This document shows, piece by piece, positions 22,791 through 56,864 of a stretch of DNA of 64,000 nt. The notes beneath the pieces were generated by a model. The model searched no databases. It saw only the letters and a list, made by a program, of their open reading frames with translations, and was not told the DNA's origin. The position numbers and the translations under genes are program-made. The stretch's first letter is position 1. Each line of letters begins with the position of its first letter. The DNA is from Malacoraja senta (lineage: Eukaryota), in contig CM075991.1 in NCBI GenBank assembly GCA_038087875.1, positions 1,054,001-1,118,000 on the forward strand, in the 5' to 3' direction.

Positions 22791-25511
22791 AGATGGGCAA
22801 GGTATTTACCGAGGAGAAAGACAGAAGGATGGAGGAACCTGGGACAGTCAATGGAAGTGTCTTGGGAGCAGTCAGTGTTACCGTCGAGACCCAAAACGCC
22901 ATCCATTCCTTCTCTCCAGAGATGCTGCCCATCCCGTTGAGTTACTCCAGCATTTTGTGTCTATCTTTGAGACATTGGATATGTTCAGAACTGAGACTGA
23001 CAGACTTTTGAATGACTGGAGATCCAACAAATGCAGGGATAGGGCAGGAAAGATAAGTCAGGATAGAAGATGACTATAATCTTACTGAATGCCAGAGCAA
23101 CTGGCAGAGCTGCATCACTTACTACTGTCCCCATTACATTCGCTTGTGAGGGGATTAACCAATCAAGCTATCAACTGCAGGTACAGAGTCAGTTTGACTT
23201 GATTAGAATGTTTAATTTACAGCTATTTTCCTATAAACACAAATTTAAACAGCTTTTTTTGAAAAATAAACCACTGTGTACATACAAAATGTTCCCAACA
23301 ATTGAAACAATTGAACTGGCTCACTGCATAGTTTGATCAATTCTTAATTTAACTGTGGATATGCGTTAAAAATAGGAACAACAATTTAACAGGAAATAAA
23401 ATAAGGAAGCACGTAGTTACGCATACATTTCTTTTAATATATATTTAATTTTTCAACAGTGGCGTGTTACTCTTTGCAGGGAAGGCTCAAATGAGAGGAC
23501 ATGGTTGCCAGATAACTTAACAGTCACTTAAAACAATCACTTAAAGAGAAAATGTATTTTCACGGGGCACAGTGAATCTTTGAAATTCTCAACCAGATAG
23601 GATTGTGGAGCGCAGATCATTGAGGGTATTTAAAGAGGTATTTTTGAAAGATCAGGGAATTGAAGACTTTGGTAACTGGCATAAAAGAGGAGTTCAGGTG
23701 GAGGGCAGATCAACCATGATTACACTGAATGGAGTGTTGTGAGGAGTGGGTCTCCTGCTCTTTCGTTTGTGTTCTTCCCGTACAGTCATCACACAACTTT
23801 TTATGTGCATCTATTTGGGTTCTAATTAAAGAGCTCAAGCCCTCTTCTGCAATGGTTAAAAGACTTAAAGCATGGATCAAAAAGGGTTAGAGTGCGGGGC
23901 TGAGGCCAGGCGGCTTTTCCACTCGCCTTACCTACTCTAACCTCACCCCCTCTGAACGTACAGCCCTCCGCTCACTCTGCAGCAACCCCAACATTATAAT
24001 AAAACCCGCCGACAAGGGAGGTGCCATGGTAGTCTGGCGTGCTGACCTCTACCGGACTGAGGCCAGGCGACAACTCTGACACCTCCTCCTACTTATCCTT
24101 GGACCATGATCCCACATATGAGCACCAGGCTTTAAACTCACACACTATTTCTGATTTCATCACTTCTGGCTGTCTGCCTTCCACAGATCCAACCTTATCG
24201 TTTCCCAGCCCCGCACAGCCTGATTTTACCTTCTCACCAAAATCCACAAATAACTGCCCTGCCAGACCCTTACCAACTTCTCCTTTGACTCCTCCTACTT
24301 CCTCCAAGTCCACGCCATAGCTATGGTTACCCGCATGGGTCCCTGCTACGCCTGCCTCTTTGTAGGGTATGTTGAACAATCCCTGTTCCAGGCTACACTG
24401 GCCCTATCCCCAGACTCTATCTCTGTTACATTGACGACTGCATCTGTGCTACCTCATGCACCCACCACTAGCCACATTTTCCCATCTCCACCCACTCATG
24501 GACCTCATCAACTTCACCACCAATTTTCGTCCTGCACTCAAATTTACTTGGACCATCTCAGACACCTCCCTCCCCTTTCTTGATCTCACAGTCTTCATCA
24601 CAGGAAATAGACTATTGACTGACGTCTATTACAAACCCACTGACTCCCACAACTATCTCGACTACACTTCTTCCCACCCTGCTTCCTGCAAAGACTCTAT
24701 CCCCTACTTCCCTTGCTCCCCCTCCCCTAATCGCACCAGACAAAGTCCACCCTAGTCTATGTTTCTAGTCCTTACCTTCCACCTCATACAACACACAATC
24801 CTCCACAATTTCCGCCACCTCCAACGGGATCCCACCACTAGCCACATTTTCCCATCTCCACCCCTTTCCTCCTTCTGCAGAGATCTTTCCTTCCGCAACT
24901 CCCTGGTTAACTCATCCCTTCCCATCCAAACCACCCCCTCCCCAGGTACCTTCCCCTGCAACCGCAGAAAATGCAACACCTTTCCCCTATACCTCCTCCA
25001 TCAACTCTGTCCAGGGACCTCGACAGTCCTTTCAGGTTAGGCAAACGTTCACTTGCACCTCCTCCAACCTCATCTACTGTATCCGTTGTTCAAGATGCGG
25101 ACTCTTATACATCGGCGAGACCAAACGCAGACTGGGTGATCGTTTCGCGGAACACCTTCACTCAGCCTGCCTGAACCAACCTGATCTCTCGGTTGCTGGA
25201 CACTTTAATTCTCCTTCCCATTCCCACACAGACCTTTCTGTCCAAGGTCTCCTCCATTGTCAGAGTGTGCCTAAATGCAAATTGGAGGAACAGCATCTCA
25301 TATTTCGCTTGGGCAGCTTGCAGCCCAGTGGTATGAATATTGATTTCTCTCACTTCAGGTAGTCCCGGCATTCCCTCTCTTTCTCTATCCCTCCCCCACC
25401 CAAGTCGCACTAGCTTCTCATTTTCACCCAACAATGGCCTGTTCTCTTTATCATCGTAACTTTTTGCATATCTTTCATTCATTGTTCTTTATCCCTCTAC
25501 ATCACCATCTA

Positions 25512-27165
25512 CAGTGCCCTCCATAATGTTTGGGACGAAGACCCAGCATTTATTTATTTGCCTCTGTACTGCACAATTTGAGATTTGTAATTTTAAAAAA
25601 ATCACATGTGGTTAAAATGTACATTGTCAGATTTTATTAAAGGGTATTTTTATACATTTTGGTTTCACCATATGGAAATTACAGCTGTGTTTATACATGG
25701 TCCCCCCATTTCAGGGCACCATAATGTTTGGGACACATGGCTTCACAGGCGTTTGTAATTGCTCAGGTGTGTTTAATTGCCTCCTTAATGCAGGTATACG
25801 AGAGCTCTCAGTAGCTAGTCTTTCCTCCAGTCTTTCCATCATCTTTGGAAACTTTTATTGCTGTTTATCAAAAATGAGGACCAAAGTTGTGCCAATGAAA
25901 GTCAAAGAAGCCATTATGATACTGAGAAACAAGAATAAAATTGTTAGGGACATCAGCGAAACCTTAGGCTTACCAAAATTAACTGTTTGGAACATCATTA
26001 AGAAGAAAGAGAGCACTAGTGAGCTTACTAATCGCAAAGGGACTGGCAGGCCAAGAAAGACCTCCACAGCTGATGACAGAAGAAATCTCTCTATAATAAA
26101 GGAAATCCCCCAAACACCTGTCCGACAGATCAGAAACACTCTTCCGGAGTCAAGTGTGGATTTGTCAATGACCACTAACCGCAGAAGACTTCATGAACAG
26201 AAATACAGAGGCTACACTGCAAGATGCAAAACACTGGTTAGCTGCATAAATAGGATGGCCAGGTTACAGTTTGCCAAGAAGTACTTAAAAGAGCAACCAC
26301 AATTCTGGAAAAAAGGTCTTGTGGACAGATGAGACTAAGATTAACTTATATCATAGCGATGGCAAGAGCAAAATATAGAGGAGAGAAGGAACTGCCCAAG
26401 ATCCAAAGCATACCACCTCATATGTGAAACATGGTGGTGGGAGTGTTATGGCCTGGGCATGTATGGCTGCTGAAGGTACTGGCTCACTTATCTTCATTGA
26501 TACAACTGCTGATGGTAGTAGCGTAATGAATTCTGAAGTGAATAGACACATCTTATCTGCTCAAGTTCAAATAAATGCCTCTAAACTCATTGGCCAGCGG
26601 TTCATTCTACAGCAAGACAATGATCACAAACATACTGCAAAAGCAACAAAAGCGTTTTTCAAAGCTAGAAAATGTTCATTTCTTGAGTGGCCAAGTTAAT
26701 CACCCAATCTGAACCCAATTGAGCATGCCTTTTATATGCTGAAGTGAAAACCGATGGGGACCAGCCCCCAAAAACAAGCATAAGCTAAAGATGGCTGCAA
26801 TACAGGCCCGGCAGAGCATCACCAGAGAAAACACCGAGCAACTGGTGATGTCCGCGAATCGCAGACTTCAAGCAGTCATTGCATGCAAAGGATATGCAAC
26901 AAAATACTAAACATGACTACTTTCATTTACATGACATTGATGTGTCCCAAACATTATGGTGCCCTGAAATGGAGGGACTATGTATAAACACTGCTGTAAT
27001 TTCTACATGGTGAAACAAAAATGTATAAAAATGGCCTTTATTAAAATCTGACCGTGTGCACTTTAACCACATGTGATTTTTTTTGATTATAATTCTCAAA
27101 CAGTGGAGTACAGAGGCAAATAAATAAATGATGGGTCTTTGTCCCAAACAATATGGAGGGCACTG
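25512..27165 (+). mobile_element. Full-length Tc1 transposon, IR/DR type
   Basis: TA TSD (25510-11, 27166-67). ~230-bp TIRs starting CAGTGCCCTCCATA, with the internal direct repeat ccataatgtttgggac in each TIR. Confidence 0.95.
25874..26910 (+). pseudogene. Tc1 transposase, disrupted
   Basis: MRTKVVPMKVKEAI...GRPRKT (HTH region), WTDETKINL, KHGGGSVMAWACM, QQDNDHKH, NLNPIEH. Frameshift near 26310 and in-frame stops. Confidence 0.92.
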
Positions 27166-27307
27166 TATATCTCTTATTTCCCTTATCCCTAACCAGTCTG
27201 AAAAAGAGTCTCGACCCAAAACGTCATCCATTCCTTCTCTCCAGAGATGCTGCCTGTCCTGGTGAGTTACTCCTGCTTTTTATGTCTATCTTAGGTTTAG
27301 AGAGATA

Positions 27308-30545: not shown

Positions 30546-32343
30546 CTAGACTAAGTGGGACCCGTTGGGTCCCATTCTCACACGGGAGGCTGGTCCCCCA
30601 ATGCAATATTCCACCGCTCCATCAATTCCAATATTCCACCACTTACGCATAGCCCTCAACTGCGCAGGCGCGGCTACCGGTTCCCGTTGTGACGCCCCTG
30701 ATCCCCCCTGATCCCACCTCCTCCCTTCACCCCCCCCACTCTGCCCCTTGCCCTTCACCACCCACACACTCCATCCCCCCTTAACCCCCCCCCTCCACTC
30801 TTAGCAGCTCTCCGGCGGCGCAGCCATTCCCTCCCATTGGGTTCCCATTGTGACGCAGCACACGCAGGTATTACTGCGCAGGTGCAGCTGACGGGTATGG
30901 CAAGTGGAAAATGGATTTATTAAAGCTTAAAATGTGAATAACTCTTAAAATATTACAATTTAAACGTTAAAGAGATTTATTCAGTCCATTCTTTCTTGTT
31001 GCGCCTCTTGGCTTCAGAAGGGGACTGTCGGGGGCCAGTGGGGGGATCGTCCTGCAGCCTGGGGAGGGGGATGACTTTAGGCGGTGGCCAGTGGGGGGGG
31101 GGGCTTTCTGGAGGGCTAGTATGGGTGTTGTGGGCTGAATGGATTGGTTTCCAGAGGGCTAGTATGGACATTGTGGGCCGAATGCATTCTTGGGCTAGTC
31201 CTGCAGCTGGGGACGGGAAGGTTTCAAGCGGGGGCCGGCGGGAGCGTTCTGTAGCTGGGGGAGGGGGACGATTTCAGGAAGGGGCCGGGTGGAGGGGAGT
31301 GCTGCCGTGGCCTACCGCTGCTATGGCCTGCCGCTGAAGGGGGGAGGTGTGTGGGCGGGGGTGGTGAGTCTTCTTGACTCACAATTCACTCACTCACAGC
31401 TTGTAGACGCACAGTTCACTCAGCCACGGCTTGTGGACTCACAGTTCACTCAGCCACGGCTTGTGGTATCACAGTTCACTCAGCCACGGTTTGTGGACTC
31501 AAAGTTCACTCATCCACGTCTTGTAAACTCACAGTTCACTCAGCCACAGCTTGTGGACTCACAGTTCAGTCACTCACAGCTTGTGGACTCATAGTTCAGT
31601 CACTCACGGCTTGTGGACTCACAGTTCAGTCACTCACGGCTTGTGGACTCACAGTTCAGTCTCATGGCTTGTGGACTCACAGTTCAGTCACTCATGGCTT
31701 GTGGACTCACAGTTCAGTCACACACGGCTTATGGACTCACAGTTCAGACACTCACGGCTTGTGGACCTCTGGACTCAGGCTCGACTTCCGGACTCGGTTT
31801 GACTTCCGAACTCGGCGCGACTTCTGGACTCGGCGCGACTTCCTGATTCGGCGCGACTTCAGGACTCGGCGTGACTTCAGGACTCGGCGTGACTTCCAGA
31901 CTCGGCGCGACTTCCGGACTCACAGTTCAGTCACTCACAGCTTGTGGACTCACAGTTCACTTACTCACGACGTGTGGACTTTCAGTTCACTCACTCACGG
32001 CTTATGGACTCACAGTTCTGGACTCAACTCTCACTCACGACTTCCGGGCTGACTGACTCACACGTGGCCTCCGGGGCTTTATTCTCCTCGCCCCCGGAAG
32101 TAGCGTTACCTTCATGGTGACTGACAGGCGAGAAGACCAATCTGCTGATCTCACGATTTTTTAAACCTTCATAACCTTTCTAATATTCCACCGATCGGAA
32201 CAGAACTTGGTGCGCTTGGAGCAGAGGAGAACGGTGAGTAAGGTGGTGAAAAATCCTAGCGATATAGAGTAACATTTTTGCGCAAATTTAAAAACAAAGC
32301 AGAACGAAAGTGGTCAAGATGGGAGTTTTAGTAATAGTGTAGA
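30546..32343 (-). mobile_element. Helitron unit d with 30-bp and 18-bp minisatellites
   Basis: ctagactaagtgggacccgttgggtccc ... gagttttagtaatagtgtaga|t, i.e. an intact 5' TC end after A. Confidence 0.88.
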
Positions 32344-33118
32344 TATAGAATAGAATATAGATAGAAGATAGATAGGAGATATATAGATAGATAGAATAGA
32401 GAATAGAAATAGATAGATAGATATATAGATAGAAAATAGACGGATAGGCAGGTGGGACTAGCATAAAAGGAGCACCTTTTTGGTCTGCATGGGCAAGGTG
32501 GGACCTGGTTCTTTGTTGTATGACTCTATGACTTGAGACCACCTGGGCTACCGCCAGAGGAGCTGAGGTACAGTTCAGTAACCTCTGTAACTTTCCATCA
32601 TTATCCCAACAACACCCTCCACCCTCCAGTTGTCCTCAAAATATCCCAGAATTAAACACCTGCGAGAACCCCCCGTAAACACATGTGTGAACCCCCCGTA
32701 AACACATACTCGCCATCCTCGCTTCTACAACTGTCAACTTCCCTGCTTCTCCTTCCAACCTTTCCCATTCATCTGCTCTTCCTGTCTCTGAGGATCAGCT
32801 GTCCTTACATGCCCTTCCCTATTAATTTGACATCCCTCCTCCAGTCACTGTAACCATCTATAAGGGCTGTCCAAACGTGCTACATCCACCCCAAACCTCT
32901 ACACCACCATCATACCCCCAAACCTCAGCCTAGTCATCAAGCACTTCCAGTGTAATCTCCATGCACCACAGCACCAAAAGATTGGTGAGGAAGAGCCTAT
33001 TCTACTGCACATTGTGCTTTGAGACATGCATGCTGTTAAACCTCTGTAAATACCCTCAGGGGTGCCTCCTTTTAGTGGGCCAAATCAAGTGTTGTCATGT
33101 GCCACGAGTTAACCCTTA

Positions 33119-33334
33119 AGGTCCTGTCCCACTTTCACGACCTAATTCACGACCTCTGCCGAGTTTGCCCTTGACTCATACTCGTAGCATGGTCGTCACA
33201 AGGTCGTAGGTATGTCGTGATGCTAGTCGTAGGTACTCGTGGCATTAAGTAGGTCGGGCGTTTTTCTAGCCTGATGAAAAATGTCCACGAGTAAAAAAGG
33301 TCGTGAATTAGGTCGTGAAAGTGGGACATGCCCT
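33119..33334. mobile_element. PIF/Harbinger MITE
   Basis: TIRs agg(g)cctgtcccactttcacgacc and TTA TSD. Duplicated copy at 38670-38886. Confidence 0.88.
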
Positions 33335-34008
33335 TTAGGCCTTGGTTAGGATTTTACTGAACTACTCTGATGTAATGGAATCCACTTAGGTACAATGTCA
33401 TACATGAACTTCAAAATTCTCAAATTGCAAAACAACATGTCATACATATGCTTCAACATTTTCAATTACATTCCAAAAACAACAACTGCCAAATATGGAG
33501 ACTTGAGAAACTACAGATGAGCAATCTTGAGCAAAATACAAAGTGCTGTATAAAGTCAGTGGGTCAGGCAGCATCTGAAGACGGAATGGACAGACAAAGC
33601 TTCACTTGGGGGCTTTCTTCAGACTGCCAAATATGTAATAGTGATGTAATTTCACAATTCTTTCCTGGTTGCACAGAGCTTTTGTAGGAATAGAGGAAAT
33701 TGGAAAGGTCAGTTAACCTTATTGCTCCTGTTCTCTGATACCCAAGGCAGTTTTATATGTAAATCATTCAAGCTTCTAGATCACATTTTAACCTTTGAGT
33801 GACTGTGTCTTATATCATACGTCTGCCAAGAAGTGAAATGTGTACACATGACTAATGCATAACTAACATCCATGTGCACATATTTGAATGCACATGTGTA
33901 CATGTGTGAGATTAACCAATGCACAATTTACATTTATAATCTGGAGGCTTGCAAGATTTTTGAAAAAAGAATTGTTGTAGATCTTTGCAATAAATTTGCT
34001 TATACTGC

Positions 34009-35090: not shown

Positions 35091-35403
35091 TTATGCAGAA
35101 TTCACAGTAAGAATACTGAGATTAACCAATGCACAACTTACATTTATAATCTGGAGGCTTGCAAGATTTTGGAAAAAAGAATTGTTGTAGACCTTTGCAA
35201 TAAATTTGCTTATACTGCCTTTATATTTATGCAGAATTCACAGTAAGAATCTGACTTAAAAGAATTGGTAACATTAAAGTTTGCAAAATAGAGTGAAAGA
35301 GGGAAGTGAGCTCACATATGTTTATGCTGACGTTGGAAAGCTGAAATTTAAACAAAAATGCCGAAAACTCAGATCTACAGACAGGGAAACGTAGCTAAAG
35401 TTT

Positions 35404-36119: not shown

Positions 36120-36880
36120 TCTCGAATCAGCATCAATTGTGTGGATGTGGAAATGATTGACGCTTCAAGTTCCCTGGCGTAAATATTACCAATGATCTGT
36201 GGTGGACTAATCACATTGATGCGACAGCCAAGAAGGCACACCAACGCAACCTAGTTCCTGAGGAAATTCGGCATATCTCCAGTGACTCTTACAAATGTAT
36301 ACAGATGTACCAAAAAAAGCATGCTGTTGGGTTGCATCACCCTTGGTTGCAAGACCACAGGAAATTACAGAGAGATGTAGATGTAATCTAATCTATCACA
36401 CAGACCAGCCTACCCGCCATTGACTTCTACACTTCAAGCTGCCTCGGAAAAGCAGCCAGCATAATCAAAGACTCGTCCCATCCTGGATATTCCTTCTTCT
36501 CCCTGCTCTTGAATGACAGAAGGTACAGAAACTTGAAAGCGCACACCACCAGACTCAGCAACAGCTTCTTCCCCTCCATTATCAGGCATCCGAATACGCT
36601 AGGGTACTGTTTGATACAGCTCTAATGGATTTCAGACATCGGCCTTTGTCTAAGGAACTGATTCGCTGCAATGCTGAGAACCAAAGATACTAGAGCTCTA
36701 CGATCTTTGCTGAGAACCATGTTCTGCAGTTTGTATCTTCCCCTTTGCTCTATCTGTGTACTTGAGTTTGAACTAATTGTTTCTATGTACGGTAGATCTG
36801 ATCTGTTTGGATAACATGCAAAACAAACCTTATCACTGTGCCTCGGTAAATGTGCCAATACTAAAGCTAAAAGCTAAACT
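36120..36880 (+). mobile_element. Old Rex1/Babar-like LINE 3' fragment
   Basis: KAASIIKDSSHPGYSFFSLL...RRYRNLKAHTTRLSNSFFP remnant. (CTAAA)n-like tail. Confidence 0.7.
36674..36717. other. 28-bp TIR-only insert with 8-bp TSD (putative transposon excision footprint)
   Basis: ctgagaac-CAAAGATACTAGAGCTCTACGATCTTTG-ctgagaac. Confidence 0.85.
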
Positions 36881-36944: not shown

Positions 36945-37887
36945 TTTATTATTTATTTAATTCTTTATTTCGAACAGAATAAAAGAATAAAAAGCAAGTG
37001 TGAAACAGCATACAAAAAACAAAACAAGAATATTTATAAAGTGTCATAAACAATATCTATAAATAAATGAAATCGTATGTGTCCGAAAAGGATCAGGAAG
37101 AAGCCAAAGCTTATTAATTCCCACCCCTTATTCAACTGCTTATAATTCTCTTATACAAATTTAGCAGCTATATGTACACCATAAGCTATATGTACACCAA
37201 ATTATTTACATTTATACACTAATCAAATATTTACAAAGCCATACAAAAAAGAGAGAAAAAAATAAAAAAGAAAAGAAAAAACCCTCATCTACTATAGTAT
37301 CTCTTATATATACAACCCATCACCCTATAATCACCCTTCCCAATACAATCAGTATAACAAATATCCCACTCACAATCACCTATCCTCATCCCAATATCCT
37401 TTTAAAAAAAAGTGTTTTTGTACATCTGTTTAAACTGAATTATGTTTGTGCTAAGTTTTATCTCCTGTTCCAGACCATTCCACAAATTCACACCACAGAT
37501 TGCTATGCACATACTTTTAAGAGTTGTTCTGACATTGAGTTTTTTAAAATTATTTTCCCCTCTCAAATTATACCCACCCTGTCTTTCCATAAACAGTTTT
37601 TGTATATTTCTTGGAAGTAAATTATTTCTTGCTTTGTACATGATTTGTGCAGTCTTAAATTTAACCAGATCGGTGAACTTCAGTGCAAAGATTATAGCTC
37701 CTCTAGTATCTTTGCTTCAGTGTATGTGTCTTTAAGAATAATAAATTGGTATGTTCAAGATATCCAACATTATTGATAATTCTTATTGCTCTTTCTTGTA
37801 ATGTGCATAACAGCTGTAGGTTGGTTTTGTAGGTATTACCCCATATCTCCACACAGTAACTCAGATATGGCAATATGAGTGTATTAT
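36945..37887 (-). mobile_element. L2/Crack-like LINE 3' fragment
   Basis: YNTLILPYLSYCVEIWGNTYKTNL..LQERAIRII..EHTNLLFL..MYKARNNLLP..GVNLWNGL. (AAAT)n tail. Cut at the inversion breakpoint. Confidence 0.8.
37678..37722. other. 29-bp TIR-only insert with 8-bp TSD (putative transposon excision footprint)
   Basis: cttcagtg-CAAAGATTATAGCTCCTCTAGTATCTTTG-cttcagtg. Removal restores the LINE frame THTLK-FTDLVKFK. Confidence 0.88.
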
Positions 37888-38669
37888 ACGTCAGCACAAA
37901 CACATGTGAGCTCACTTCCCTCTTTCACTCTATTTTGCAAACTTTAATGTTACCAATTCTTTTAAGTCAGATTCTTACTGTGAATTCTGCATAAATATAA
38001 CGTCAGTGTAAGCAAATTTATTGCAAAGGTCTACAACAATTCTTTTTTCCAAAATCTTGCAAGCCTCCAGATTATAAATGTAAGTTGTGCATTGGTTAAT
38101 CTCACACATGTGCATTCAAATATGTGCACATGGATGTTTAGTTATGCATTAGTCATGTGTACACATTGACCCTCTTGGCAGACGTATGATATAAGACACA
38201 GCCACTCAAAGGTTAAAATGTGATCTAGAAGCTTGAATGATTTACATATAAAACTGCCTTGGGTATCAGAGAACAGGAGCAATAAGGTTAACTGACCTTT
38301 CCAATTTCCTCTATTCCTACAAAAGCTCTGTGCAACCAGGAAAGAATTGTGAAATTACATCACTATTACATAGTTGGAAGTCTGAAGAAAGCCCCCAAGT
38401 GAAGCTTTGTCTGTCCATTCCGTCTTCAGATGCTGCCTGACCCACTGACTTTATACAGCACTTTGTATTTTGCTCAAGATTGCTCATCTGTAGTTCCTCA
38501 AGTCTCCATATTTGGCAGTTGTTGTTTTTGGAATACAATTGAAGATGTTGAAGCATATGTATGACATGTTGTTTTGCAATTTGAGAGTTTTGAAGTTCAT
38601 GTGTGACATTGTACCTCAGCGGATTCCATTACATCAGAGTAGTTCAGTAACATCCTAACCAAGGTCTAA

Positions 38670-38886
38670 AGGGCCTGTCCCACTTTCATGACCTAATTCA
38701 CGACCTTTTTTACTCGTGGACATTTTTCATCAGGCTAGAAAAACGCCCCGACCTACTTGATGCCACGAGTACCTACGACTAGCATCACGACCTACCTACG
38801 ACCTTGTGACGACCATGCTGCGAGTATGAGTCAAGGACAAACTCGGCAGAGGTCGTGAATTAGCTCGTGAAAGTGGGACAGGACCT
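38670..38886. mobile_element. PIF/Harbinger MITE (duplicated copy)
   Basis: agggcctgtcccact...agtgggacaggacct with TAA TSD. Confidence 0.88.
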
Positions 38887-39657
38887 TAAGGGTTAACTCG
38901 TGGCACATGACAACACTTAATTTGGCCCACTAAAAGGAGGCACCCCTGAGGGTATTTACAGAGGTTTAACAGCATGCATGTCTCAAAACACAATGTGCAG
39001 TAGAATAGGCTCTTCCTCACCAATCATTTGGTGTTGTGGTGCATGGAGATTACACGGGAAGTGCTTGATGACCAGGCTGAGGTTTGGGGGTATGATGGTG
39101 GTGTAGAGGTTTGGGGTGGATGTAGCAGGTTTGGACAGCCCTTATAGATGGTTACAGTGACTGGAGGAGGGATGTCAAATTAATAGGGAAGGGCATGCAA
39201 GGACAGCTGATCCTCAGTGACAGGAAGAGCAGATGAATGGGAAAGATTGGAAGGAGAAGCAAGGAAGTTGACGGTTGTTGAAGGGAATATGGCGAGTATG
39301 TGTTTACGGGGGGTTCACACAGGTGTTTACGGGGGGTTCTCGCAGGTGTTTAATGCTGGGATATTTTGAGGACAACTGGAGGGTGGAAGGTGTTGTTGGG
39401 ATAATGATGGAAAGTTACAGAGGTTACTGAACTGTACCTCAGCTCCCCTGGCTGTAGCCCAGGTGGTCTCAAGTCATAGAGTCATACAACAAAGAACCAG
39501 GTCCCACCTTGCCCATGCAGATCAAGGTGCCCCTTTTATGCTAGCCCCACCTGCCTACGCTTGGCCCACCTATCCATCTGTTTTCTATCTATATCTATTC
39601 TATATTCTATCTATCTATATATCTTCTATCTATCTTCTATCTATATTCTATTCTATA

Positions 39658-40546
39658 TCTATACTATTACTAAAAATCCCATCTTGACCACTTCCGTTCT
39701 GCTTTGTTTTTAAATTTGCACAAAAATGGTACCCACCCACACCCCCCCCCCCCACCCCACTCCCCTTGCACACCCACACGCACCCAGCGGTAGGCCACGG
39801 CAGCGGCAGGCCATGGTAGTGCTCCCCCCCACCGGCTGCTGCCTGAGGCCATCCCCCTCCCCCCCACCAGTCCTTGCCTGAAGCCGTCCCCCTGCCCTGG
39901 ATGCCCGACAGACCACGCCTGAAGCTGTCCTCATCCCCCAGCTGCAGGAAGCACGCCCCCCCCACCGGCCCCGACAACCCCAGCCTGAAGCTGCCCCCCT
40001 GCTCTCACTGCAGGACCCTCCCCCACGGGCCCCCGACAACCCCCGCCTGAAGCCATCCCTCTCTCCCAGCTGCCGGATGCTCCCCCCTCCCCCACCGGCT
40101 CCGACAGCCCCCGCCTGAAGCCGTGCCACTCCCCTGGCTGTAGGACGCACCCCCCCTCACCGGCGCCCCACAGCCCCCGCCTGAAGCCGTGCCCCTCCCC
40201 CGGCTGCAGGACGCTTCCACCCCCCCCGACAGCCCACGCCTGAAGCCTTCCCTCTCCGCGGATGTAGGACATTTGTAGGGTAGGGGAAAGGAGAGGGAGA
40301 GGTGAGGGAGGGATTGGGGGAGGGGAGGAGAGGGGAAGGATGAGGGAGGGTGAAGAGGAGAGGGAGGGAGTGCTGGAGGATGAGGGGAAATGAGCTGCGC
40401 CTGCGCAGTTAGGGGCTATGGATGAGTGATGGAATATTGCGTTGGGAGAACGGGTGAGTGGTGGAATATTGCGTTGGGGAATGGGGTGCATTGGGGGGAC
40501 CAGGCCTCCCGTGTGACTGGGACCCAACGGGTCCCACTTAGTCTAG
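39658..40546 (+). mobile_element. Chimeric Helitron (unit d 5' end fused to unit c) in the inverted arm
   Basis: TCTATACTATTACTAAAA ... gggacccaacgggtcccacttagtCTAG|T. Confidence 0.85.
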
Positions 40547-41637
40547 TATATTACTAAAATAAATTAACTTGTTTGTGAGTCTGCCTGTCTGTGATTCAGA
40601 GATGCCCTGAACTACACCAAAATGGTACATGATAGCGCTATAATTTTTGCGCCACCTTACTCACAATTGTCTTGTGGTGTGTTTTTTTTATCAAGTTTGG
40701 TTCAGATTGATGTTATATTTTGCAAGTTATTCACATTTTTACCTTTACAAAATCTCACTTTGAGAAATCTAACTTTATTACATGACTAGTATTGTCAGTG
40801 GGGTGATGGAGAAAGTAGCAGCTATGATCACCAAACTATTGGATTGTTATGAAAACCCATCTGGCTCACTACTGAACTTCAAGGAAAGAAGCTGTCATCT
40901 GTCAGTCTGAGAAGGGTCTCAAACCTGAAATGTCCTCAGTCCACTTCCCTCCACAGATGCTGCCTGACCCACTGAGTTTGCCTTTTGCTCAAGATTCCAA
41001 CATCTGCAGTCTTTTTGTGTACCCATACCTTGTGTGGCCTTGATGTGACTCTAGCTTCACCAAACTCTGAAATGCTGTTCAGTAGAATACAAGAGTTTAA
41101 AGCAGGAGCTGGCCATTCAGTCTCTAATTTCCGTACTGTAACTCAGTAAAATAATGTCTGATTCTCTACTCCAAATACTGTTTTCCTACCATATGCCCCA
41201 GAATTCGAACATTGAAACACCATCCACATCAGTTTTGAACGTAATGATGAATGACTGTGTCTCCACCAACCTCTGGGTAAGAGAATCACAAATATATTCA
41301 CTATGCTTTAAATTAAGAAATGGCTCTTCACTTCTGGTTTTGATACTGTATCTCCCTACCTCTGGAATCCTTTGCCTGTGAAAACATCCCTCCTGTACTT
41401 AGGCTCGTTCATGATTCACAGTGCTTTGTTTTCACCTTTTTGAAAAAGTTGGCATTACTTGTTCCTGCCTATGCTCTAAGTGTTTTGTGTATTTCCACCC
41501 CCAGATCCCTCTGATCATCTTCTCTACTGAGACATTTTTCAAGAATTGTGTAGTCCCCTTATTCTTTTAACCAAAACAAACCATCTCACGCTTTTCACCG
41601 TTTATGCTCTTTACCTGCTCATTCTACATTTTAAAAA

Positions 41638-41935
41638 GTTTTTAGAGATACAGCGCGAAACAGACCGAGTCTGCACCGACCAGCGATCCCCGCACATTAA
41701 CACTATCCTGCACACACTAGGAACAATTTACACATACACTAAGCCAATTAACCTACTTACCTGTACGTCTTTTAGTGTGAGAGGAAACCGAAGATCTCAG
41801 AGAAAACCCACTCGGTCATGGGGTGAACATACAAACTCCGTACAGATAAGCACCCATAGTCGGAATCAGACCCGTGTCTCCGGCGCTGCAAGGGCTGTAA
41901 GGCAGCAACTCTACTGCTGCACCACCGTGCCGCCC
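41638..41935 (-). mobile_element. tRNA-derived V-SINE (HE1-like)
   Basis: Same family as 7038-7322. Confidence 0.85.
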
Positions 41936-43209
41936 ACTATCTATCTATGTGCTCCTATGGCACAACTCTGAATTTAGCGTCTCTTGCAATTTTTTTTTAT
42001 TTTACTTCCAAATCCAGAGTTCAAAGCATTTGCATAGAACAGAATTTCTCATCTTTTTGCCAAACTTTGTATTTCCTATTTGTCCCTGTGTTCCGTATCA
42101 TTCTGGCCCCGATCAGAGGTACGCTCAAAATGTTTTTCAGAAATCTAAATAGATTTAGATTTAGATCTAAATCTACAGCGTGACTCTAAGCTATCCTAGC
42201 AATTACTTCTACAAAGAATTATGTACTTTTCAATGAGATCATCTCTTAATCTAGTAAACCAGACAAAAGACTTAGCCTACTCAATTCCTTCTCACATAAT
42301 GGACCCACTATTCTAGGAACAAGACTGATTAATCTTCACAGCACTCCATTTAATGCTAATATGTGTGTTTTTGGATGGAGAGACTGAAGTGCATAATTCT
42401 GTAGGTATAGTGTTACAAAGGCCCTATATTATTGTACATCACCCCTGTGACTGTGTTTTTATAATTGCAATTATGTTACAATCATTTATGACGTACAATT
42501 AATTGTTCCACATTGTCATGGATGCAGTGAATACTTAGACATACTGTAGGTGACTTTTGATCTCGTTGCTGCTTGCCTTTCATTGAGCTGCCTTTTCATC
42601 TTGCTTTGTACATTTGAAAAACTTCTACTTCCAGATGTTTCTCTACGCCCCATTCAGATTCCCATAAGCAAATGCCCCATCTAAGTCCCAATTCTGTTAA
42701 GAGTAACCTATTTGACGTCCCCAGTTCCCCAGAAATGATGCCTACATCTCACAAATCTAAAGCCCTCCTTCCTGTGCCATCCCTTCAGCTACCCATCATT
42801 TGCTCTATTCCCCCATAGCAGTTGGCACTGGGACTCATCCTGAGATTACAATCTTTATGAGGTCCTGCTTTCTGAACTGCCTAAATTCTGTTTCTGGGAC
42901 CGCATACTTCCTTCCATCTATTGTGTTGGTTACAATGCGGACAACCTTTGTTTCCTCTCTACTATACCACCAGCACTTCATTGAACCAGAAAATTAGTTC
43001 AATTGTGCGATCAAGCTAAGTACCAAATTCAGAGACAGCAAAGGTGCCCCTATTCCAATCAAACTTGCAAAGTCTTCCTCACAAACTTCTGTGGAATGGT
43101 GTATTGACACTAGTCAAGCTCCAGCCTGACAGAGTCATATTCACAGAATCACAATTTAGATTCCAGATAGTGTCAAGATGCCAGACTGCTCCATCACAAT
43201 CTGGAATGT

Positions 43210-43392
43210 GTTCTCTGCCACAGAAGGTAGTTGAGGCCAGTTCATTGGTTATATTTCAGAGGGAGTTAGATGTGGCCCTTGTGGCTAAAGGGATCAGGGG
43301 GTATGGAGAGAAGGCAGGTACAGGATACTGAGTTGGATGATCATCCATGATCATATTGAAGGGCCGAATGGCCTACTCCTATGTTTCTATGT
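43210..43392 (+). mobile_element. CR1 3' tail
   Basis: SLPQKVVEASSL..KGIRGYGEKAGTGY, then a tttctatg tail. Confidence 0.9.
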
Positions 43393-43788
43393 GTTCTACT
43401 CGGGATGGCTGCAGAGTGTGGGTTGGAGGGAGTGAAAAGCATTTGAAGTCTTAACACTGACTTTTGACTCCATGATGTCTTGTGGCATCAGGACAGACAT
43501 GGGCGATGTAACCTTTTTCAGATTGTCAGATCCTCAGCTGATGAGCAATATTTGAAAGTAACATTGAAAGCAGCGATGCCACAGGTGCACTCTTGAGTGG
43601 AAGAGTTCAAAGTCTATCATCAAAAGAACAAATGTGTTATCTTTTGAACAACATAGCTGCTAAGCTAGATCTTTCCATCGTTAGGAATGTGAATAAACAC
43701 TCTCTAATTGATAGGATCTAGCCCTGTTTACTTGGTTTTCTCTCAATACCCCTATAAATGGTTTCACCACCAGCACACCATCATTGAA

Positions 43789-44085
43789 GTTTAATTTAGT
43801 TTATTTTAGAGATACAGCGGAGAAACAGGCACTTCGGCCCACCAAGTCCCTGCCGACCTGCGATCCACACACATTAACACTATCCTACACTCACTGGGGA
43901 CAATTTACAATTTTACCGAAGCTAATTAACCGACAAATCTGTATATTATTTGGAGTATGGGAGGAAACCGAAGCACCTGGAGAAAACCCACGCAAGTCAC
44001 GGGGAGAACATCAAAACTCGGTACGGACAACACCCGTAGTCAGGATCAAATCTGGGTCTCTGGCACCGTAAGGCAATAACTCTAC
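43789..44085 (-). mobile_element. tRNA-derived V-SINE (HE1-like)
   Basis: Same family as 7038-7322. Confidence 0.85.
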
Positions 44086-44128
44086 CATCTGCAGTGTGGG
44101 TCATCCACAAAATGCATTAGAGTAGCTA

Positions 44129-44164
44129 GTCTATGCCAAAGATCCTACAGGATCTTTGGTCTAT
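44129..44164. other. 22-bp TIR-only insert (third putative footprint)
   Basis: gtctatgc-CAAAGATCCTACAGGATCTTTG-gtctat. The second TSD copy is interrupted by the 44165-45124 insertion and resumes as 'atgc' at ~45127. Confidence 0.7.
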
Positions 44165-45124
44165 AATAATAATAATAATAGATTTTATTTATGGGCGCCT
44201 ATACAAAAGTCTCAAGGACACCTTACAAAATTTAACAAAGAAACATATAATCAGAGTAAAATAAGTTATAAAGACATCATCAATACACAAATTAAAGACA
44301 GAAATTCGATCCAAAAAAAACAACAAAATTCAGAAACACAATGTGAAGAGAGAGCAGCGGCAGCCAAACCGCGCCAGCGTCCACTCTCCCTTCCAACCGC
44401 CATCTTGGACATAGACTAACATAGACACTACACACTACACACAAAATCATCCCCCCACAATGGTTACCACTGTGGGGGAAGGTACAATGTCCAGTCACCG
44501 ACCCCAGTTCTCCCCAAAGTCAGGCCTATTGAGGCCTCCACAGTTGCCTCTACGGAGGCCCGATGTTCCTGGCCATTCTCGCCGGGTGCAGTTGCCCCGG
44601 CATCGGGAGAGTCCTCGCAGCGGCTGGGACGGCCGATTTCCTACCGGAATCCGTGGCACCTGAAGCTGACAAGGCCGTGCCGATTTGGAGCTCCGAGGCT
44701 CCCGATGTTAGAGTCGGCGCCGCCGCCCGCGGCTGGCCGCTCCACAGACCCGCAGCCTGGAGGTGTTGAGCTCGGCGGTCACAGCTGACCGCCCCGTCGA
44801 CCCAGGCAAGGCATCGCCCGCTCCGCTCCGCGATAGCGCTCCAGCGCTGTGCCGCCACCGAAGCTGAAGGTGCTGGGCAGTCCCCGCCAGAAAACGCCGC
44901 TCCAGGCCCGATGGTAGGCCGCAGGGACGGGTCGACGGGGCAGCCCAGAGAAAAAGCTGCCTCACCGACCAGGTAGGGACCTAGAAAGTAGTTTCCCCCT
45001 TACCCCCCCACATGAAAAGTCAAAATTCCCCAACATAGACTAAGAAAACTAAAAACTAAGAAAGAAAAGTGAATTTAACGGACGGCTGCTGGTTAGCAGC
45101 CGTTCCCCAAGATAGCTCCTCCTC
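44165..45124 (-). mobile_element. ~960-bp GC-rich non-coding retroposon with (ATT)n tail
   Basis: (aat)n plus 'gattttattt' tail at the left. CpG-rich body, no RT homology. It splits a pre-existing TSD. Confidence 0.6.
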
Positions 45125-48895: not shown

Positions 48896-51800
48896 AAATT
48901 AAAATTGTATTTGACAAATTGGAGTGCTTTGACAAATTAACATGTTCTGTGGATAAAGAGGAATTGGTGAATGATTTGACATGGTACCACAAGAATGTTT
49001 GGTGTGGAAAGCAAAAGTTCATATTGCTAAGGAAACATATCAACGCAGTTGAAAGATTGTTTGGAAAATAATAAGCACAGTAGGCAATACAGGTCTTTAT
49101 TTCTGGACGACAAGATGTTCCACATGTCGGGATCTCACAAATGTTTACAATCTATATGTAACTTAGATGAAGCCACACAAAATATGGTAGCTAGGTTTGC
49201 TGATGAGACAAGTTGGTTGAAAAGTAAATTGTGAAGTAGATATAAGGAGATTACAAAGTGATATAGATAGGATAAGTAAGTGGGCGACCATCTAGTTAAT
49301 GGAGTAGTAGGTACCAGCATCTGTAGTTCCTTGCATCATCATACTTAGATAATTTAGGTTCCAGTCCCATTCTAGAAACTTGAGCACCAAAATTTAGGAT
49401 GATACTCCAATGCATTCGATAATGTTGGTGTCTTCTGGGCGAGGCATTAAATTGAGGACTTTATTCAGAAAGGGACGGAGAATGAAAGCTGGAAACTACA
49501 GGTTAGTTATTGTTGGTCAAAGGTACTTAGAAAAAATCAAGGTAATCAGGCAGAGACAACCTTGACCTTCTAAAGAAGAGTCCCAACCTGAAATGGTGCC
49601 TATCCATGTCCTCCAGAGATGACCCACTGAGTGACAGTATTTCTTTTGAAAACCTGCACCTGCAGTTCCTTCTGTCTCCAGAATGCTATCACCTATTGCA
49701 AGCTGAATTGAATGCAAACATTAGGTCATGTTTCAGTTATATAGGGCATGAATGAGATCAGATTTGAGGTATTTGTCTCTGCTTAAGGAAGGATGATAAT
49801 GTATTATTAAGTGTTTAGAAAAAGTTTATCAGATGAATTCCTGGAAGGTGTGACCCCCCCATTCACATGAAAAAGGGTTGGGCTGGGTTTGTATCTTCTG
49901 CAGTTTATAACGGTGAGAGGTTATGTGATATATATGAAACATACAACTTCATGAGGGCTCTTGACAGGTTGGATGTGGAGAGGATGAGAGATTATACCCT
50001 GACTCTGGAACTGTTGCACTACAATGCTAAGAACAATATTCTGAACTCTGTATCTTTTCCTTCCCTCTACCTATTGGAGTTGAGTTTGGCTTGATTGTAT
50101 TTATGTACAGTATTATCTGATTTGATTGGATAGCATGCAAAACAAAGGTTTTCAATGTGTTTTGGTACGTGACAATAAGGCTAAACCTCGGTGGATTATT
50201 GATAAGCAAGCACATGAAAGACTACTACAGGGTGTTGCTGAGAATGTGGAGTTCAAGTTACAATCAGAACAGCTATAATCTTATTAAATGGCAGAGCTGG
50301 CCGAGGAGACATAAGATAAGATTTATGAGGATGTGCCAGGACTTGAGGGCCTGAGCTCTAGGGAGAGGTTGGGCAGGCTAGGACTCTATTCCTTGGAGCA
50401 CAGGAGGATGAGGGGAGATCTTAGAGAGGTGTATAAGATCATGATAGGATAGATGCACAGAGTATTTTACCCACAGTAGAGGAATCACGAACCAGAGGAC
50501 ATAGGTTCAAGGTGAAAGATTTAATAGGAATCTAAGGGGCAACTTAGAATTCATAGAATAAACTGTCAGAGAAGGTAGATATGAGAACAACATTTAAAAG
50601 ACATTTGCAAAGATACATGGAGAGGAAACTGGGAGCTGTCGGGGCAGACAACACTTCCAGTCCGAGCAGCTCCAACCCTAGCGATGAGACTCGACTGGCA
50701 AGACCGACGTCGGTCAGAGCTATAGTGGTGGATGACTCCATTGTCCGGGGGATCTGAATGTGTGGCTGGGGGGCTGGTGCAGGGAGCAAAGATTTAGATT
50801 TATAGACCACTGGGATCTCTTCTGGGGTAGGGGTGACCTGTACAAAAGGGACGGGTTACACCTTAACTGGAGGGGGACCAACGTTCTGGCAGGCAGGCTT
50901 GCTAGTGCTACACGTGTGGGAAACTAAATAGTGGGGGGGAGGGATTGACAAATTGGGAGTATAAAGATGTAGTTAAAGGGGAAGTGAGTACAGGAAAAGT
51001 TACAAAAGACTCCCGAATTATTGGGAAGGAAAGTTCGAGAAGGGATAAGAGAGTAAGGCCAGGGCCAATAATGACCGGTGTGAAAGGGGAGGTGAATACC
51101 GAAGTTAAAGTACTGTACATGAATGCGCGAAGTATAAGAAATAAAGTGGATGAGTTTGAGGCTCAGTTAGAAATTGGCAAGTATGATGTTGTGGGAATTA
51201 CAGAGACATGGCTGCAAGAGGACCAGGGCTGGGAACTGAACACTCAAGGGTATACGTCCTATCGAAAAGACAGGCAGGTGGGCAGAGGCAGTGGGGTAGC
51301 TCTGTTGGTGAGGAATGAAATTCAGTACCTTGAGAGGGGGGGCATAGAATCAGGAGATATGGAGTCAGTATGGATAGAACTGAGGAATTGTAAGGGTAAA
51401 AATACCCCAATGGGAGTTATCTACAGGCCCCCAAACAGAAGCCTGGATATAGGGTGCAAGTTGAATCAAGAGTTAAAATTGGCATGTCGCAAAGGTAATG
51501 CTACGGTTATTATGGGAGATTTCAACATGCAGGTAGACTGGGAAAATCAGGTTGGTACTGGACTCCAAGAAAGGGAGTTTGTGGAGTGCCTCCGTGATGC
51601 ATTCTTAGAGCAGCTTTTACTGGAGACAACCAGGGAGAAGGCAATTCTCCTGGATTTAGTGTTGTGTAATAAACCGGATTTGATAAGCAAACTCGAGGTA
51701 AAGGAACCATTAGGAGGTAGTGACCATAATATGATAAGTTTAATCTACAATTTGAGAGGGAGAAGCGAATATCGGAAGTATCAGTATTACAGTTGAACAA

Positions 51801-54019
51801 AGGGGACTATGGAGCTATGAGGTAGGGACTGGCCAAAGTTGACTGGAAAGATATTCTAGCAGGCATGACAGTGGAACAACAATGGCAGGTATTTCTGGAA
51901 ATAATACAGAAGGTGCAGGATCAGTTCATTTCAAAGAGGAAGAAAGGTTCCAAGGGGAGTAAGGGGCGACCATGGCTGACAAGGGAAGTCAGGGACAGTA
52001 TAAAAATAAAAGAGAAGTATAACATTGCAAAGATGAGCGGGAAGCCAGAGGATTGGGAAACTTTTAAAGAGCAACAGAAGATAACTAAAAAGGCAATACG
52101 GGGAGAATAGATGAGGTACGAAGGTAAGCTAGCCAAGAATATAAAGGAGGATAGTAAAAGCTTCTTTAGGTATGTGAAGATGAAAAAATTAGTTAAGACC
52201 AATTTGGACCCTTGAAGACTGACACAGCTGAATTTATTATGGGGAACAAGGAAATGCCAGACGAGTTGAACAAGTACTTTGGATCCGTCTTCACTGAGGA
52301 AGACACAAACAATCTTCCTGATGTACTCGTGGCCAGAGGATCTTGGGTGACGGAGGAACTGAAGAAAATTCACATTAGGCAGGAAATGGTGTTGAGCAGA
52401 CTGATGGGACTGAAGGCTGATAAATCCCCAGGGCCTGATGGTCTGCATCCCAGGGTACTTAAGGAAGTGGCTCTAGAAATCGTGGACACATTGGTGATCA
52501 TATTCCAATGTTCTATAGATTCAGGATCAGTCCCTGTAGATTGGAGGGTAGCTAATGTCATCCCACATTTTAAGAAAGGTGGGAGAGAGAAAACAGGGAA
52601 TTTTACTTCGGAGTCACGTGAGTGACTACGTGAAGAACCCCGCCAGTGCGCCTGCGCGTCATTACGTCAGACGCCTTGACGCAAACGGACGTGAGGAGCA
52701 GTGCTCCTCGAGTGGTTTGTAGTTTTTCAACTACAAGGTAAGTAAAAACTTTTTTCCAGGTTTTCCAGGTCCGTTTACTGTGGGTCTATGGCGATTTTTT
52801 CCACAGACGCCATGGGAAAAAACGGGCAGGGGGAAGAGGCGAGCGACAGCCGACAGAAAGTCGGGAGTCCGCGGTTAGAGACCAACCGCCTCTAAACCCC
52901 GGTACAGTCGCCAGCGGTGAGCATAGCGACTGTGGACCTGGGGCTGGTGAAAACACAGTCAGCGCTTGTCGGGCAAAAGACAAAGTTTAAATCCCAACGG
53001 AGGGAGTCCCAGGCAATGAAGAAGCTCCAGGGCTAGATACTGCTTTAGAGCGTATTGCCCAAATAGAAAGCCTTTTACACAGGCTGTTGGAGCAACGTTC
53101 ACTCAGGGAGGAGTGTTCTGAAAGCCAAGCTGCTGGAAACAGCTCAAACAGCTCCTGGTACAGGGCTAGATACTGCTTTTGAGCGTATTGCCCAAATAGA
53201 AGCCTTTTTCATAGGTTGTTGGAGCAAAAGTTCACTCAGGAAGGAGTGTACTGTAATCCAAGCTGCAGGAGCAGCTTAACAGCACCTGGCTCAGGGCTGA
53301 TGGAATGCACCCTCAGGAATGAGGAGCGTGCTACGGGTCATGAGATTTCAGACCCCGACTCTGACGGTGAGGCTGTACAAGGCGATGAAAGGCAGCTGCC
53401 AGATGTTCCACCCCTGGTAGTAGGATTCGCTGCCCTGTCAGGGTCAGGAGAGCCATTAGGAAGAACTGGCCTCCTTAATAAATTACTTGGTTTACCATTA
53501 GCTGGAACAGCATGAAATGGATGAGACTGCAAGAGTATCTGGAATCAGTTGCAGAGAATATTAAAGCTGCTGGGTTCTGGAATAACTGCTTTTACCAGAA
53601 TAGCAGGTAACAACCAAAAGATGACGAAGTTGCATCAGCAAGCACTGGGGTTGCTATGCAGCACCCACTTCGAGAAGTGCTATACGGTCTACTATGAATC
53701 CGAAATTCGCAGCACTCTGCAAACCAAGTAATATACAAATTACCCAACTTACTCTTTGGAGAGATCTCGGGAGACGTATTAAAGAGTTGGAAGATGAAGC
53801 GAAAACAGGATTGATGAAGACATCAATGGTTGTGAAGTCTGTAAAGAGGAAGTATCCTTTCAGACGTCATACGGATCCTGGACCAAGTCGCTCATCAACG
53901 CAGGGACGTAGTTGGCGGCCTGCAGCGGGAGCAAGAACCAGTGGGCGTGCTTCCGGGAGAACCCAGGAATTTCAGGGTACTCAAATGACTCAAGAGGTAG
54001 GTGGACCTGGTTCTCATGG

Positions 54020-55885
54020 GAACATACTAACTGGATTAAGTCCAAAAGTTGGAGGCAGGTTACATTTCTTCTATAATAATTGGAAGAAAATTACTTCAGA
54101 TGTGGTAATCCTGAATAATATACAAGGATTTCGAATTGAATTCAATCCAAATTATGATTTGCCTGTTCAGCATGTTCCTAGCCGAACTCTGCACTTTGTA
54201 CAAAAAGAAGTGATGGAGGTTCAGGTTGCAATTGAAACCCTATATTAAAAAAGGGGTTATTGAAAAATCAGCCTACCAAAGTCACCAATTTGTGTCAAAA
54301 ATATTCCCTCGATCAAAAAAGGATGGAGGATGTAGGATTCTTGTAGATTTGATAAATCTGAATCCTTTTGTGCAATTTAGACATTTTAAAATGGAAACAT
54401 TTGTGACTGCCAAACAGCTTATTTCAGAAGCATGTTATATGGCAACTATAGACTTGAAAGATGCATATTATTCAGTGTCTGTTCATTCAGAAGATAGGAA
54501 GTATCTTAAATTTAAATGGATGAACCAGTTGTGGCAGTTCAAAGCTCTGCCTAATGGGTTAATATCTGCACCCAGAATATTCACAAAAATTGTTAAAACC
54601 AATTCTGGGCTTGCTGAGTAGCCAGGGGCATGTACTAATGGCATATTTGGATGATGTCTTGATTATAGGAAAGACAAAACAGTCAACAGAAGTATCTGTT
54701 GCAGTTGTGAAATCAACTTTTGAAAAGTTGGGGTTTCTAATTCATCCACAGAAATCTAGGTTAACACCATGTACCTCTATTAATTATTTGGGGTTCACAA
54801 TTGATTCAGTCCAAATGAATATCACTTTGCCCAGGGAAAAGGGTGGATTTGATTAAAGATTGCAGTAATCTCCTAAACGAGCAAAAACCTTCAATTAGAC
54901 AGGTGGCTCGTGTACTGGGAAAATTAGTAGCAGCATTCCCAGCAGTCCAATTTGGACCATTACATTATCAACAGCTGCAGAGACTTAAAGAACAGGCACC
55001 GAGAATGCATGTTGGTCATTTTGATAGAACCATGCAACTAACAAATGCTGTTTCTGATCTGCAGTGGTGGATTCTACATGTCTCAAGCAGTTCCAGCAAA
55101 GTGCTGATTGAACAACCTTCCATGATATTACAAACTGATGCCAGTGCACCAGGATGGGGTGCAACTGACTTAACATCTAGCTGAGGAGGCAGATGGAATC
55201 AGGAAGAGTCATTGTTACTGCAGACATGGGGAATTAACTATTTGGAGCTTCTAGGATGTTTCTATGGGCTCCAAGCTTATTGTTCTAACACAACTAATAA
55301 GCATGTTCAAGTTCAAATTGATAACACAACAGTAGTTGTTTATATTAATGATATGGAATTAAGTCGGTGTCTTGTGACAAAATGGTTAATCAACTTTGGG
55401 CTTGGTGTATTGAAAAGAACATTTGGATTTCAGCTATCTATCTACCAGGTAGAATGAACGATAGCAGACACCAGGTCACGAAAAGTTCCATGATAATAAA
55501 GAATGGATGTTGAATCAAGAGGTATTCAATGATATAGTCATCAGATTTGGAATGACCGACATCGACTTGAATCATCAGCTATCGAGATATGTCTCATGGA
55601 AACCAGATCCAGGAGCAGTGGCGATTGATGCTTTCTCGCTACATTGGGGTGGTATGTTTTCATATATTTCCACCTTTCTGGCTCATAAGCCAATGTTTGC
55701 TTAAAATCAGGCAAGATGCTGCTTCAGGGGTATTGGTACTACCAGATTGGCCTACACAGCCATGGTATCCGTTGATATTAGAATTAACATCACAAATGTT
55801 GATGAAAGTCCCAAAAAAGAGTAATTTATTGCTGCTCCCTGTACAGGGGAACAACATCCATTATATGATCGTTTGGATTTGTTGA
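54020..55885 (+). pseudogene. DIRS pol: RT, RNase H and N6-adenine methyltransferase-like domains (frameshifted)
   Basis: VGGRLHFFYNNW, KKDGGCRILVDL, HFKME, IDLKDAYYSV, AYLDD, TDAS..GWG, INYLEL, IDNTT, AIDAFSLHW, FPPF, PDWPTQPWYP. Confidence 0.92.
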
Positions 55886-55899
55886 TTTGCAGGTTTTAA

Positions 55900-56864
55900 G
55901 AATGCCTTTTCTGGGACGAGGACTGTCTGAGCATACTATGGACATGCTTACGGCAGCCTGGAGGAAGAGCACTCAAAAACAGTACCTTTCTTATATTAAG
56001 AAATGGGAAAAGTTCTGGGTACAAAAGAATGTGCAATAAAGTACTGCAGATATTTCAAATGTTTAGAATTTCTGTCAAAACTTTATTATGATGAAGGTCT
56101 GAGTTGTAGTGCAATTAATTCAGCCAGAAGTGCATTGTCCTCATATTTGGTTCTGGATTCAGAAAGAAACTCAATTGGGTCACACCCAATTGTTTCCAGA
56201 CTAATGAAAGGAATCTTTAATTCCAAACCACCGAAACCTAGGTACGTGACAATCTGGGATGTAAGTGTGGTACTGAAACTACTTCGTGATGGTTATCAAG
56301 TGTGTCTTTACCTTTGGTCAAGCTCAGTATGAAAGTATTCATGTTTATGGCATGAGTGACAGCACAACGAGTGCAAACACTTGGAAAATTACAAATAGAC
56401 AGTATGGAAGTAACTGAAGACAAGGTTACATTCTATATCTATGACCTAATAAAGCAAATTAGGCCAGGTGTGACAGGATTTAAAATTATGCTGGCAGCAT
56501 ATCCAAATGATCCATGTCTTTGTATTAAGACATATTTATTACAATACATTGAGGTCACAAAGAATTTGAGAATACGGAAACTGGGTTTTTGATCACACAC
56601 AAGAAACCACACAAGAGAGTTTCAATACAGACTATTTCCAGATGGATAAAAGAAGTCTTAACAGCTGCTGGTATTAACACTTATGTTTTTACGTCTCACT
56701 CGACTAGGGCAGCAGAAATGTCGGCGGCCAGGGCAAAAGACGGCCCCGTCGACCATATCCTCGCAGCTGCCGGGTGGTCCAATGAGTTGATCTTTCAACA
56801 TTTTTACCATCGGCCTATTGTTAATGCGGGGTTGTTTGCAGAAACTATTTTAAGTTCTGTGTAA
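55900..56864 (+). pseudogene. DIRS tyrosine recombinase (disrupted)
   Basis: INSARSALS, RLMKGIFN..P..PRY..IWDV, TAQRVQTL, TISRWIK, HSTRAA, AAGWS...F..FY. Confidence 0.92.

Follow-up and report, generated by a model that had tools for sequence, protein, structure and literature searches.

The locus analyzed here raises the question of what kind of event left a 29-bp insert, flanked on both sides by the identical 8-mer CTTCAGTG, in the open reading frame of a LINE in the Malacoraja senta genome. The window, i.e., the whole stretch of 64,000 nucleotides that was analyzed, carries this LINE on the minus strand (Table 1). With the insert the minus-strand frame is shifted, and it runs open across the site once 37 nt (the insert plus one TSD copy) are removed, as had been stated in the sequence-only reading that drew attention to the locus. 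P0015, another copy of the host LINE and nearly identical to it (98% over 46% of the query), runs through the insert position without a break, and this copy together with the exact 8-mer repeat confirmed the further claim of that reading that the 29 bp are a real insertion with an 8-bp TSD. The motif was found without extra residues at this position in 13 of 16 LINE relatives, the other three being missed by the search pattern. Over 58 residues upstream of the insert site, P0015 and the window copy differ at just 4, and the host LINE copy is therefore young. The best named relatives of a LINE endonuclease ORF in the window came from Hypanus, Cetorhinus, and Leucoraja, which points to a cartilaginous fish and probably to a ray or skate. 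An Rfam search of positions 37000-45000 returned 0 matches.

Table 1. Positions in the window of the 29-bp insert, its host LINE, and two related inserts.
Feature	Position	Strand	Remarks
Left copy of 8-bp TSD	37678..37685	+	exact repeat, CTTCAGTG
Fused terminal stubs, 29 bp, inferred excision scar	37686..37714	.	~12 nt + ~17 nt
Right copy of 8-bp TSD	37715..37722	+	exact repeat, CTTCAGTG
Host LINE ORF, 3' part (C-terminal to the RT domain of relatives), frameshifted by 37 extra nt	37405..37900	-	
Sibling scar, 28 bp (14+14 nt), exact 8-bp TSD	36674..36717	.	insert = 36682-36709
Probable third scar, 22 bp	44129..44166	.	TSD 6/8; insert = 44137-44158

The 29-bp insert has relatives in the same window. 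Its reverse complement shares an exact 14-nt match with the insert at 36682, as had been read from the letters, and a paralogue of the repeat that hosts this second insert, near 50006-50120, is without exactly these 36 nt. At the putative third site, the right TSD copy adjoins a (TAA)n run; the 8-bp TSD is exact at two of the three sites. A search of the window with the shared 14-nt end gave 4 matches with at most 2 mismatches against 0.41 expected, a number reached in 0 of 100 shuffles. When the window was scanned for short inserts (14-60 bp, TIR of at least 6, exact 7-9-bp TSD), exactly two were found, both CAAAGAT-ended. The three scars all differ in sequence, and their stubs measure about 17+12, 14+14, and 11+11 nt, which departs from the roughly 15-17 nt of each TIR that had been proposed. 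The two ends differ at positions 8-9, so that each window insert is a join of two different ends. Between 0.23 and 0.43 of the words of the region were present in sequencing runs of related organisms, a fraction with no bearing on site alleles.

Several other repeats were recorded along the way. A 1.7-kb inverted duplication of 95% identity (32269-34007 and 38004-39732) lies to either side of the first two scars, and an additional 217-nt inverted match pairs 35117-35333 with 37888-38104. A 904-bp element at 17111-18014, with a 16-bp TIR and an exact 8-bp TSD, is presumably hAT-like by its ends, and a Tc1-type element at 25507-27170 has long TIRs and a match to HTH_Tnp_Tc3_2. Broken RT fragments with a tyrosine-recombinase-like ORF, which we take to be DIRS-like, lie at 52622-57047 and about 61100-63900, and one 30-bp minisatellite is found at both 5188-5420 and 31440-31970, 26 kb apart.

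CA..TG termini are a feature of the P superfamily. They were present in all inserts from the window and from the loci described below, and are also common to many hAT elements. In the fly, P transposase cuts with a 17-nt stagger and generates 8-bp TSDs (PMC7776569). When the resulting tails are end-joined, the two stubs, with microhomology or filler where they meet, lie between the two TSD copies (PMC2895639). The window scars resemble such Drosophila melanogaster junctions in having both 8-bp TSDs, two truncated stubs of at most 17 nt, and CA..TG ends (PMC2895639 Table 1; PMC7776569), and, together with the related loci described below, they share with those junctions short microhomology, small or templated fillers, and one-sided stubs (PMC2895639 Table 1). 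In contrast to the fly junctions, they have another end sequence, arose in the natural germline of a cartilaginous fish, and are known from sequence alone. Terminal sequence kept at the donor site between both TSDs, with heterogeneous end-joined junctions, as observed here, is a P-type feature, and so is a 7- or 8-bp TSD, which is not exclusive to P. Excision of the hAT type leaves no terminal sequence, whereas 11-17 nt of each end were kept at the window scars, a retention that is compatible with hAT excision followed by aborted gap repair. According to PMC5499845, in excision by hAT, Transib, and MULE enzymes it is the flanking DNA that is closed into hairpins, and not retained transposon ends.

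A larger sample of junctions came from a sequence collection, searched for the shared ends separated by 0-30 unspecified bases, for a total length of 24-54 bp, a design that excludes stubs of the 22-bp type. At least 120 loci were found in metagenome contigs from 9 of 64 parts of the collection, and about 880 are estimated overall. Among the 120 loci, an exact 7-bp TSD was present at 65, a 6/7 match at 16 more, an exact 8-bp TSD at 5, and a 7/8 match at 1. The TSD threshold was passed by 87 of 119 scorable loci, and dropping 3 duplicates left 84, of which 78 have a 7-bp and 6 an 8-bp TSD. The same pattern gave 44 matches in prokaryote genomes and 6 in viral contigs, with a TSD at 0 of 44 and 0 of 6, respectively. 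Seven Nostoc and Calothrix genomes (L166, L173, L181, L184, L186, L192, and L197) contain an almost unchanged 30-bp hairpin that has this outer motif but no TSD, and in the tests made it showed no relation to the scars. The TSD-bearing contigs encode LINE RT, SUEL lectin, TBCC, and laminin exons, and the host DNA of the metagenome scars is animal. A laminin gamma-1 exon shows 54-64% identity to all named animals, fish included, which suggests an invertebrate host. The metagenome scar contigs and the window have nothing in common beyond the pattern, and the loci are concentrated in a few contig series and do not count as independent lineages.

As for the target sites, exact 7-bp TSDs showed a base bias of G1 0.43, T2 0.65, A6 0.65, and C7 0.43 (62 sites, both orientations pooled), i.e., they lean to G-T-n-n-n-A-C; the 8-bp set, consisting of 5 exact loci and 3 window sites only, matches this weakly. 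Galileo and 1360, both of the P superfamily, make 7-bp TSDs (PMC3698922), and the target consensus of Galileo is GTANTAC (PMC4168063). The 78 of 84 metagenome scars with a 7-bp TSD and a GTANTAC-like bias resemble Galileo and 1360, unlike the 8-bp scars of the window. The donor-cut geometry of Galileo and 1360 was not found in the literature searched. Further fused-end stubs with other CA..TG termini and 7- or 8-bp TSDs were seen at L054:1036-1060, L064:904-927, L065:1748-1787, and L030:10-55, and since these have different termini in the same animal contigs, several more families appear to leave scars. At L052:232-432, three stub-like inserts lie within ~200 bp, suggesting a very high local density.

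The junctions were then parsed into their two ends, the window itself supplying three scars (six stubs) and the other animals the statistics. The 84 loci held 79 distinct inserts, of 26-50 bp and none of 51-54 bp; this is not the micro-MITE of fixed sequence that the sequence-only reading had named as the finding that would speak against excision. The inserts fall into several end families. End models for four of these were taken from the longest stubs, and a strict parse, defined as a left plus a right stub with a filler of at most 3 nt, accounted for 53 of the 84 loci, the other 31 belonging to smaller families, being mutated, or having longer fillers. The inserts consist almost wholly of end sequence, with a largest unexplained middle of at most 12 nt. 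Microhomology of at least 2 nt was present at 22 of 33 gap-free junctions compared to 17% under random joining (binomial tail 3e-10, a rough figure as the end models come from the very data tested). One-sided and 20-bp stubs occurred at L022 and L052.

The total length of such inserts had been predicted to be capped near 34 bp. This was borne out in the window (3 of 3, with 22, 28, and 29 bp) and at five of the six 8-bp loci (26, 32, 32, 34, 34, and 42 bp; the ends of four are similar to those in the window, and the 42-bp L104 is ambiguous), and it failed for the 7-bp loci, of which 47 of 78 exceed 34 bp. Fly P junctions with fillers also exceed 34 bp (PMC2895639), and stub length, rather than total length, is therefore the proper test. 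All six window stubs and most of those at 8-bp-TSD loci, a small sample, are at most 17 nt, a length that was exceeded in the 7-bp-TSD families. Of the 78 7-bp loci, 55 were assigned to the four families, and their stubs pile up at 23-26 nt; no stub extended beyond about 26-27 nt, though the search left room for one of 42 nt. Stubs within 1 nt of the family maximum numbered 14 of 44, 3 of 14, 4 of 18, and 10 of 34 in the four families. This cap test is post hoc, because the data tested also supplied the end models of the families, and long palindromes may be under-represented in short-read assembly. The 23-26 nt kept per end differ from the 17 nt of D. melanogaster P, and these longer stubs could be 17-nt tails lengthened by brief gap repair. 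Hairpins at the stub tips might stall such repair, but those seen, described below, are weak and not general.

A parent element was looked for in several places. No transposase for these ends was found among the 150 of 195 window ORFs and the 150 of 295 metagenome locus ORFs that were tested, and 241 kb of metagenome loci were free of long elements bounded by such termini. Of three sequences in the loci that at first looked like long ends, L022 turned out to be a one-sided stub and L070 a repeat of the flank of the scar at that locus, and L080 led to no parent either. Four end-pattern scans of viral contigs gave 36, 1, 0, and 1 matches, none resembling an element end, and the most that two copies of one viral locus offered was a weak 482-bp pairing, with a 6/7 repeat and a TIR no longer than 6 nt. 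PF12017 matched none of 5 viral records and none of 14 control genomes either, and was thus uninformative. Longer MITEs with such termini may occur in skate assemblies.

An excision scar, as originally proposed, is well supported by the heterogeneous junctions, the microhomology, the intact TSDs of 7 or 8 bp, the CA..TG ends, and the Galileo-like target motif, and judged from its sequence the insert at 37686-37714 is probably the dead excision scar of a P-superfamily-type element. Since no long element or transposase was found, we infer the P/THAP9 assignment, which is likely, from these features. A longer element with CAAAGAT termini would once have occupied the site. By analogy with P biochemistry, a staggered cut well inside the element ends would have kept terminal sequence on the chromosome as single-stranded 3' tails, of which the longest in the window scars measures 17-18 nt. 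The junction statistics of the related families suggest that such tails would be trimmed and then joined, often at 2-4-nt microhomologies, by a route of the NHEJ or polymerase-theta type. P transposition requires subterminal transposase sites, and without them the resulting scar would be immobile.

Other accounts of the junctions have to be weighed. The one that fares best, although we consider it unlikely, is a transposase-independent loop-out, in which the TIRs of a MITE or foldback element pair, the loop is cut, and the stem is trimmed and rejoined, with the cap equal to the TIR length. Loop-out deletion yields the same cap and microhomology pattern, and a weak 4-bp hairpin was found at the stub tip in two of the four 7-bp families, but this was not significant (z -1.3 and -1.6) and no such hairpin was present in the remaining 7-bp families or the window stub; subterminal hairpins, weak and not general, were rejected as a general cause of the stub cap. 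Moreover, other window elements with 40-250-nt inverted arms show no fused-end remnants, which were seen only in CA..TG families with a 7- or 8-bp TSD.

Next in order is aborted gap repair, an improbable source in our view, whereby a non-P element, e.g., a hAT with a 7- or 8-bp TSD, would have been excised and SDSA, followed by end joining, would have restored a few terminal bases from the sister chromatid. In its favor, a T at the second TSD position also occurs outside P. CA ends and TSDs of these sizes do occur in hAT elements, as in the rice hAT TIRs that also begin with CA (PMC4423477) and the hAT families with a 7-bp TSD listed in Repbase (PMC4455052), and SDSA that is broken off and completed by end joining has been documented (PMC2895639). 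However, aborted synthesis should give broad and often asymmetric lengths, whereas no stub passed the limit described above, and the hAT-like element at 17111-18014 is without a stub counterpart in the one window analyzed. It is very doubtful that the short palindromes are mobile micro-MITEs inserted as they stand: a few identical inserts do recur at different metagenome sites (one 3 times, three twice), but a join at a 2-3-nt microhomology accounts for two of these forms, and the diversity and 26-50-bp spread of the inserts, the lack of a modal full-length form, and the three dissimilar window copies all speak against it. That the insert is a palindrome arisen by chance, or a duplication made locally in the LINE, can practically be dismissed, for although similar hairpins without TSD exist in prokaryotes (the 44 matches), two window inserts have empty-site copies, the ends are common to three sites, and 60 Markov-simulated windows gave 1 match in total (TIR of at least 7, 8-bp TSD).

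With the excision scar of a P-type element as the preferred reading, one published counterpart is BuT5, a P-associated MITE (PMC3698922), which left a natural 27-bp footprint of 12+15 nt in Drosophila mojavensis (PMC3355041), so that natural P-family footprints are already in print. The BuT5 footprint is likewise a natural fused-end remnant of the same size and from a P-family source (PMC3355041), but it is one reported instance, at an inversion breakpoint where 9-bp TSDs had been exchanged, whereas the scars here recur, both in a vertebrate and among invertebrates. The zebrafish Pdre elements/THAP9 are vertebrate, P-like, and excisable, with an 8-bp TSD (PMC10983969); they have 13-bp TIRs and are likened to the present scars by TSD and excision, not by end sequence, and the accessible part of that paper gave no donor-site junctions. 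In Anopheles, the TIRs of P elements measure 27-32 bp and the TSDs 8 bp (PMC1562414). The literature searched, with subscription papers and Repbase/Dfam largely outside its scope, nowhere described these termini, a longer stagger, or scars of this kind in cartilaginous fish; the parent element could already be classified in Repbase or Dfam.

Tentatively, and with less confidence than we attach to the scar itself, we suggest that animal genomes hold many P-superfamily scars that record cutting depth, with ~17-nt tails in 8-bp-TSD families, one of them recently mobile in a ray or skate, and a so far undescribed stagger of ~23-26 nt in Galileo/1360-like 7-bp families. By itself, the single window locus is a minor feature. 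Cutting with a 17-nt stagger is characteristic of the P transposase and, in the literature searched, has been documented for the fly enzyme alone. Should the scars be genuine excision products of P-type elements, the cleavage geometry of the whole superfamily would be readable from genome sequence, and the longer stagger of the 7-bp-TSD families would be directly testable. The window scar would date P-like mobility in a cartilaginous fish to after the young LINE copy had inserted, and it would mark a class of tiny TSD-flanked insertions that is likely missed by repeat annotation.
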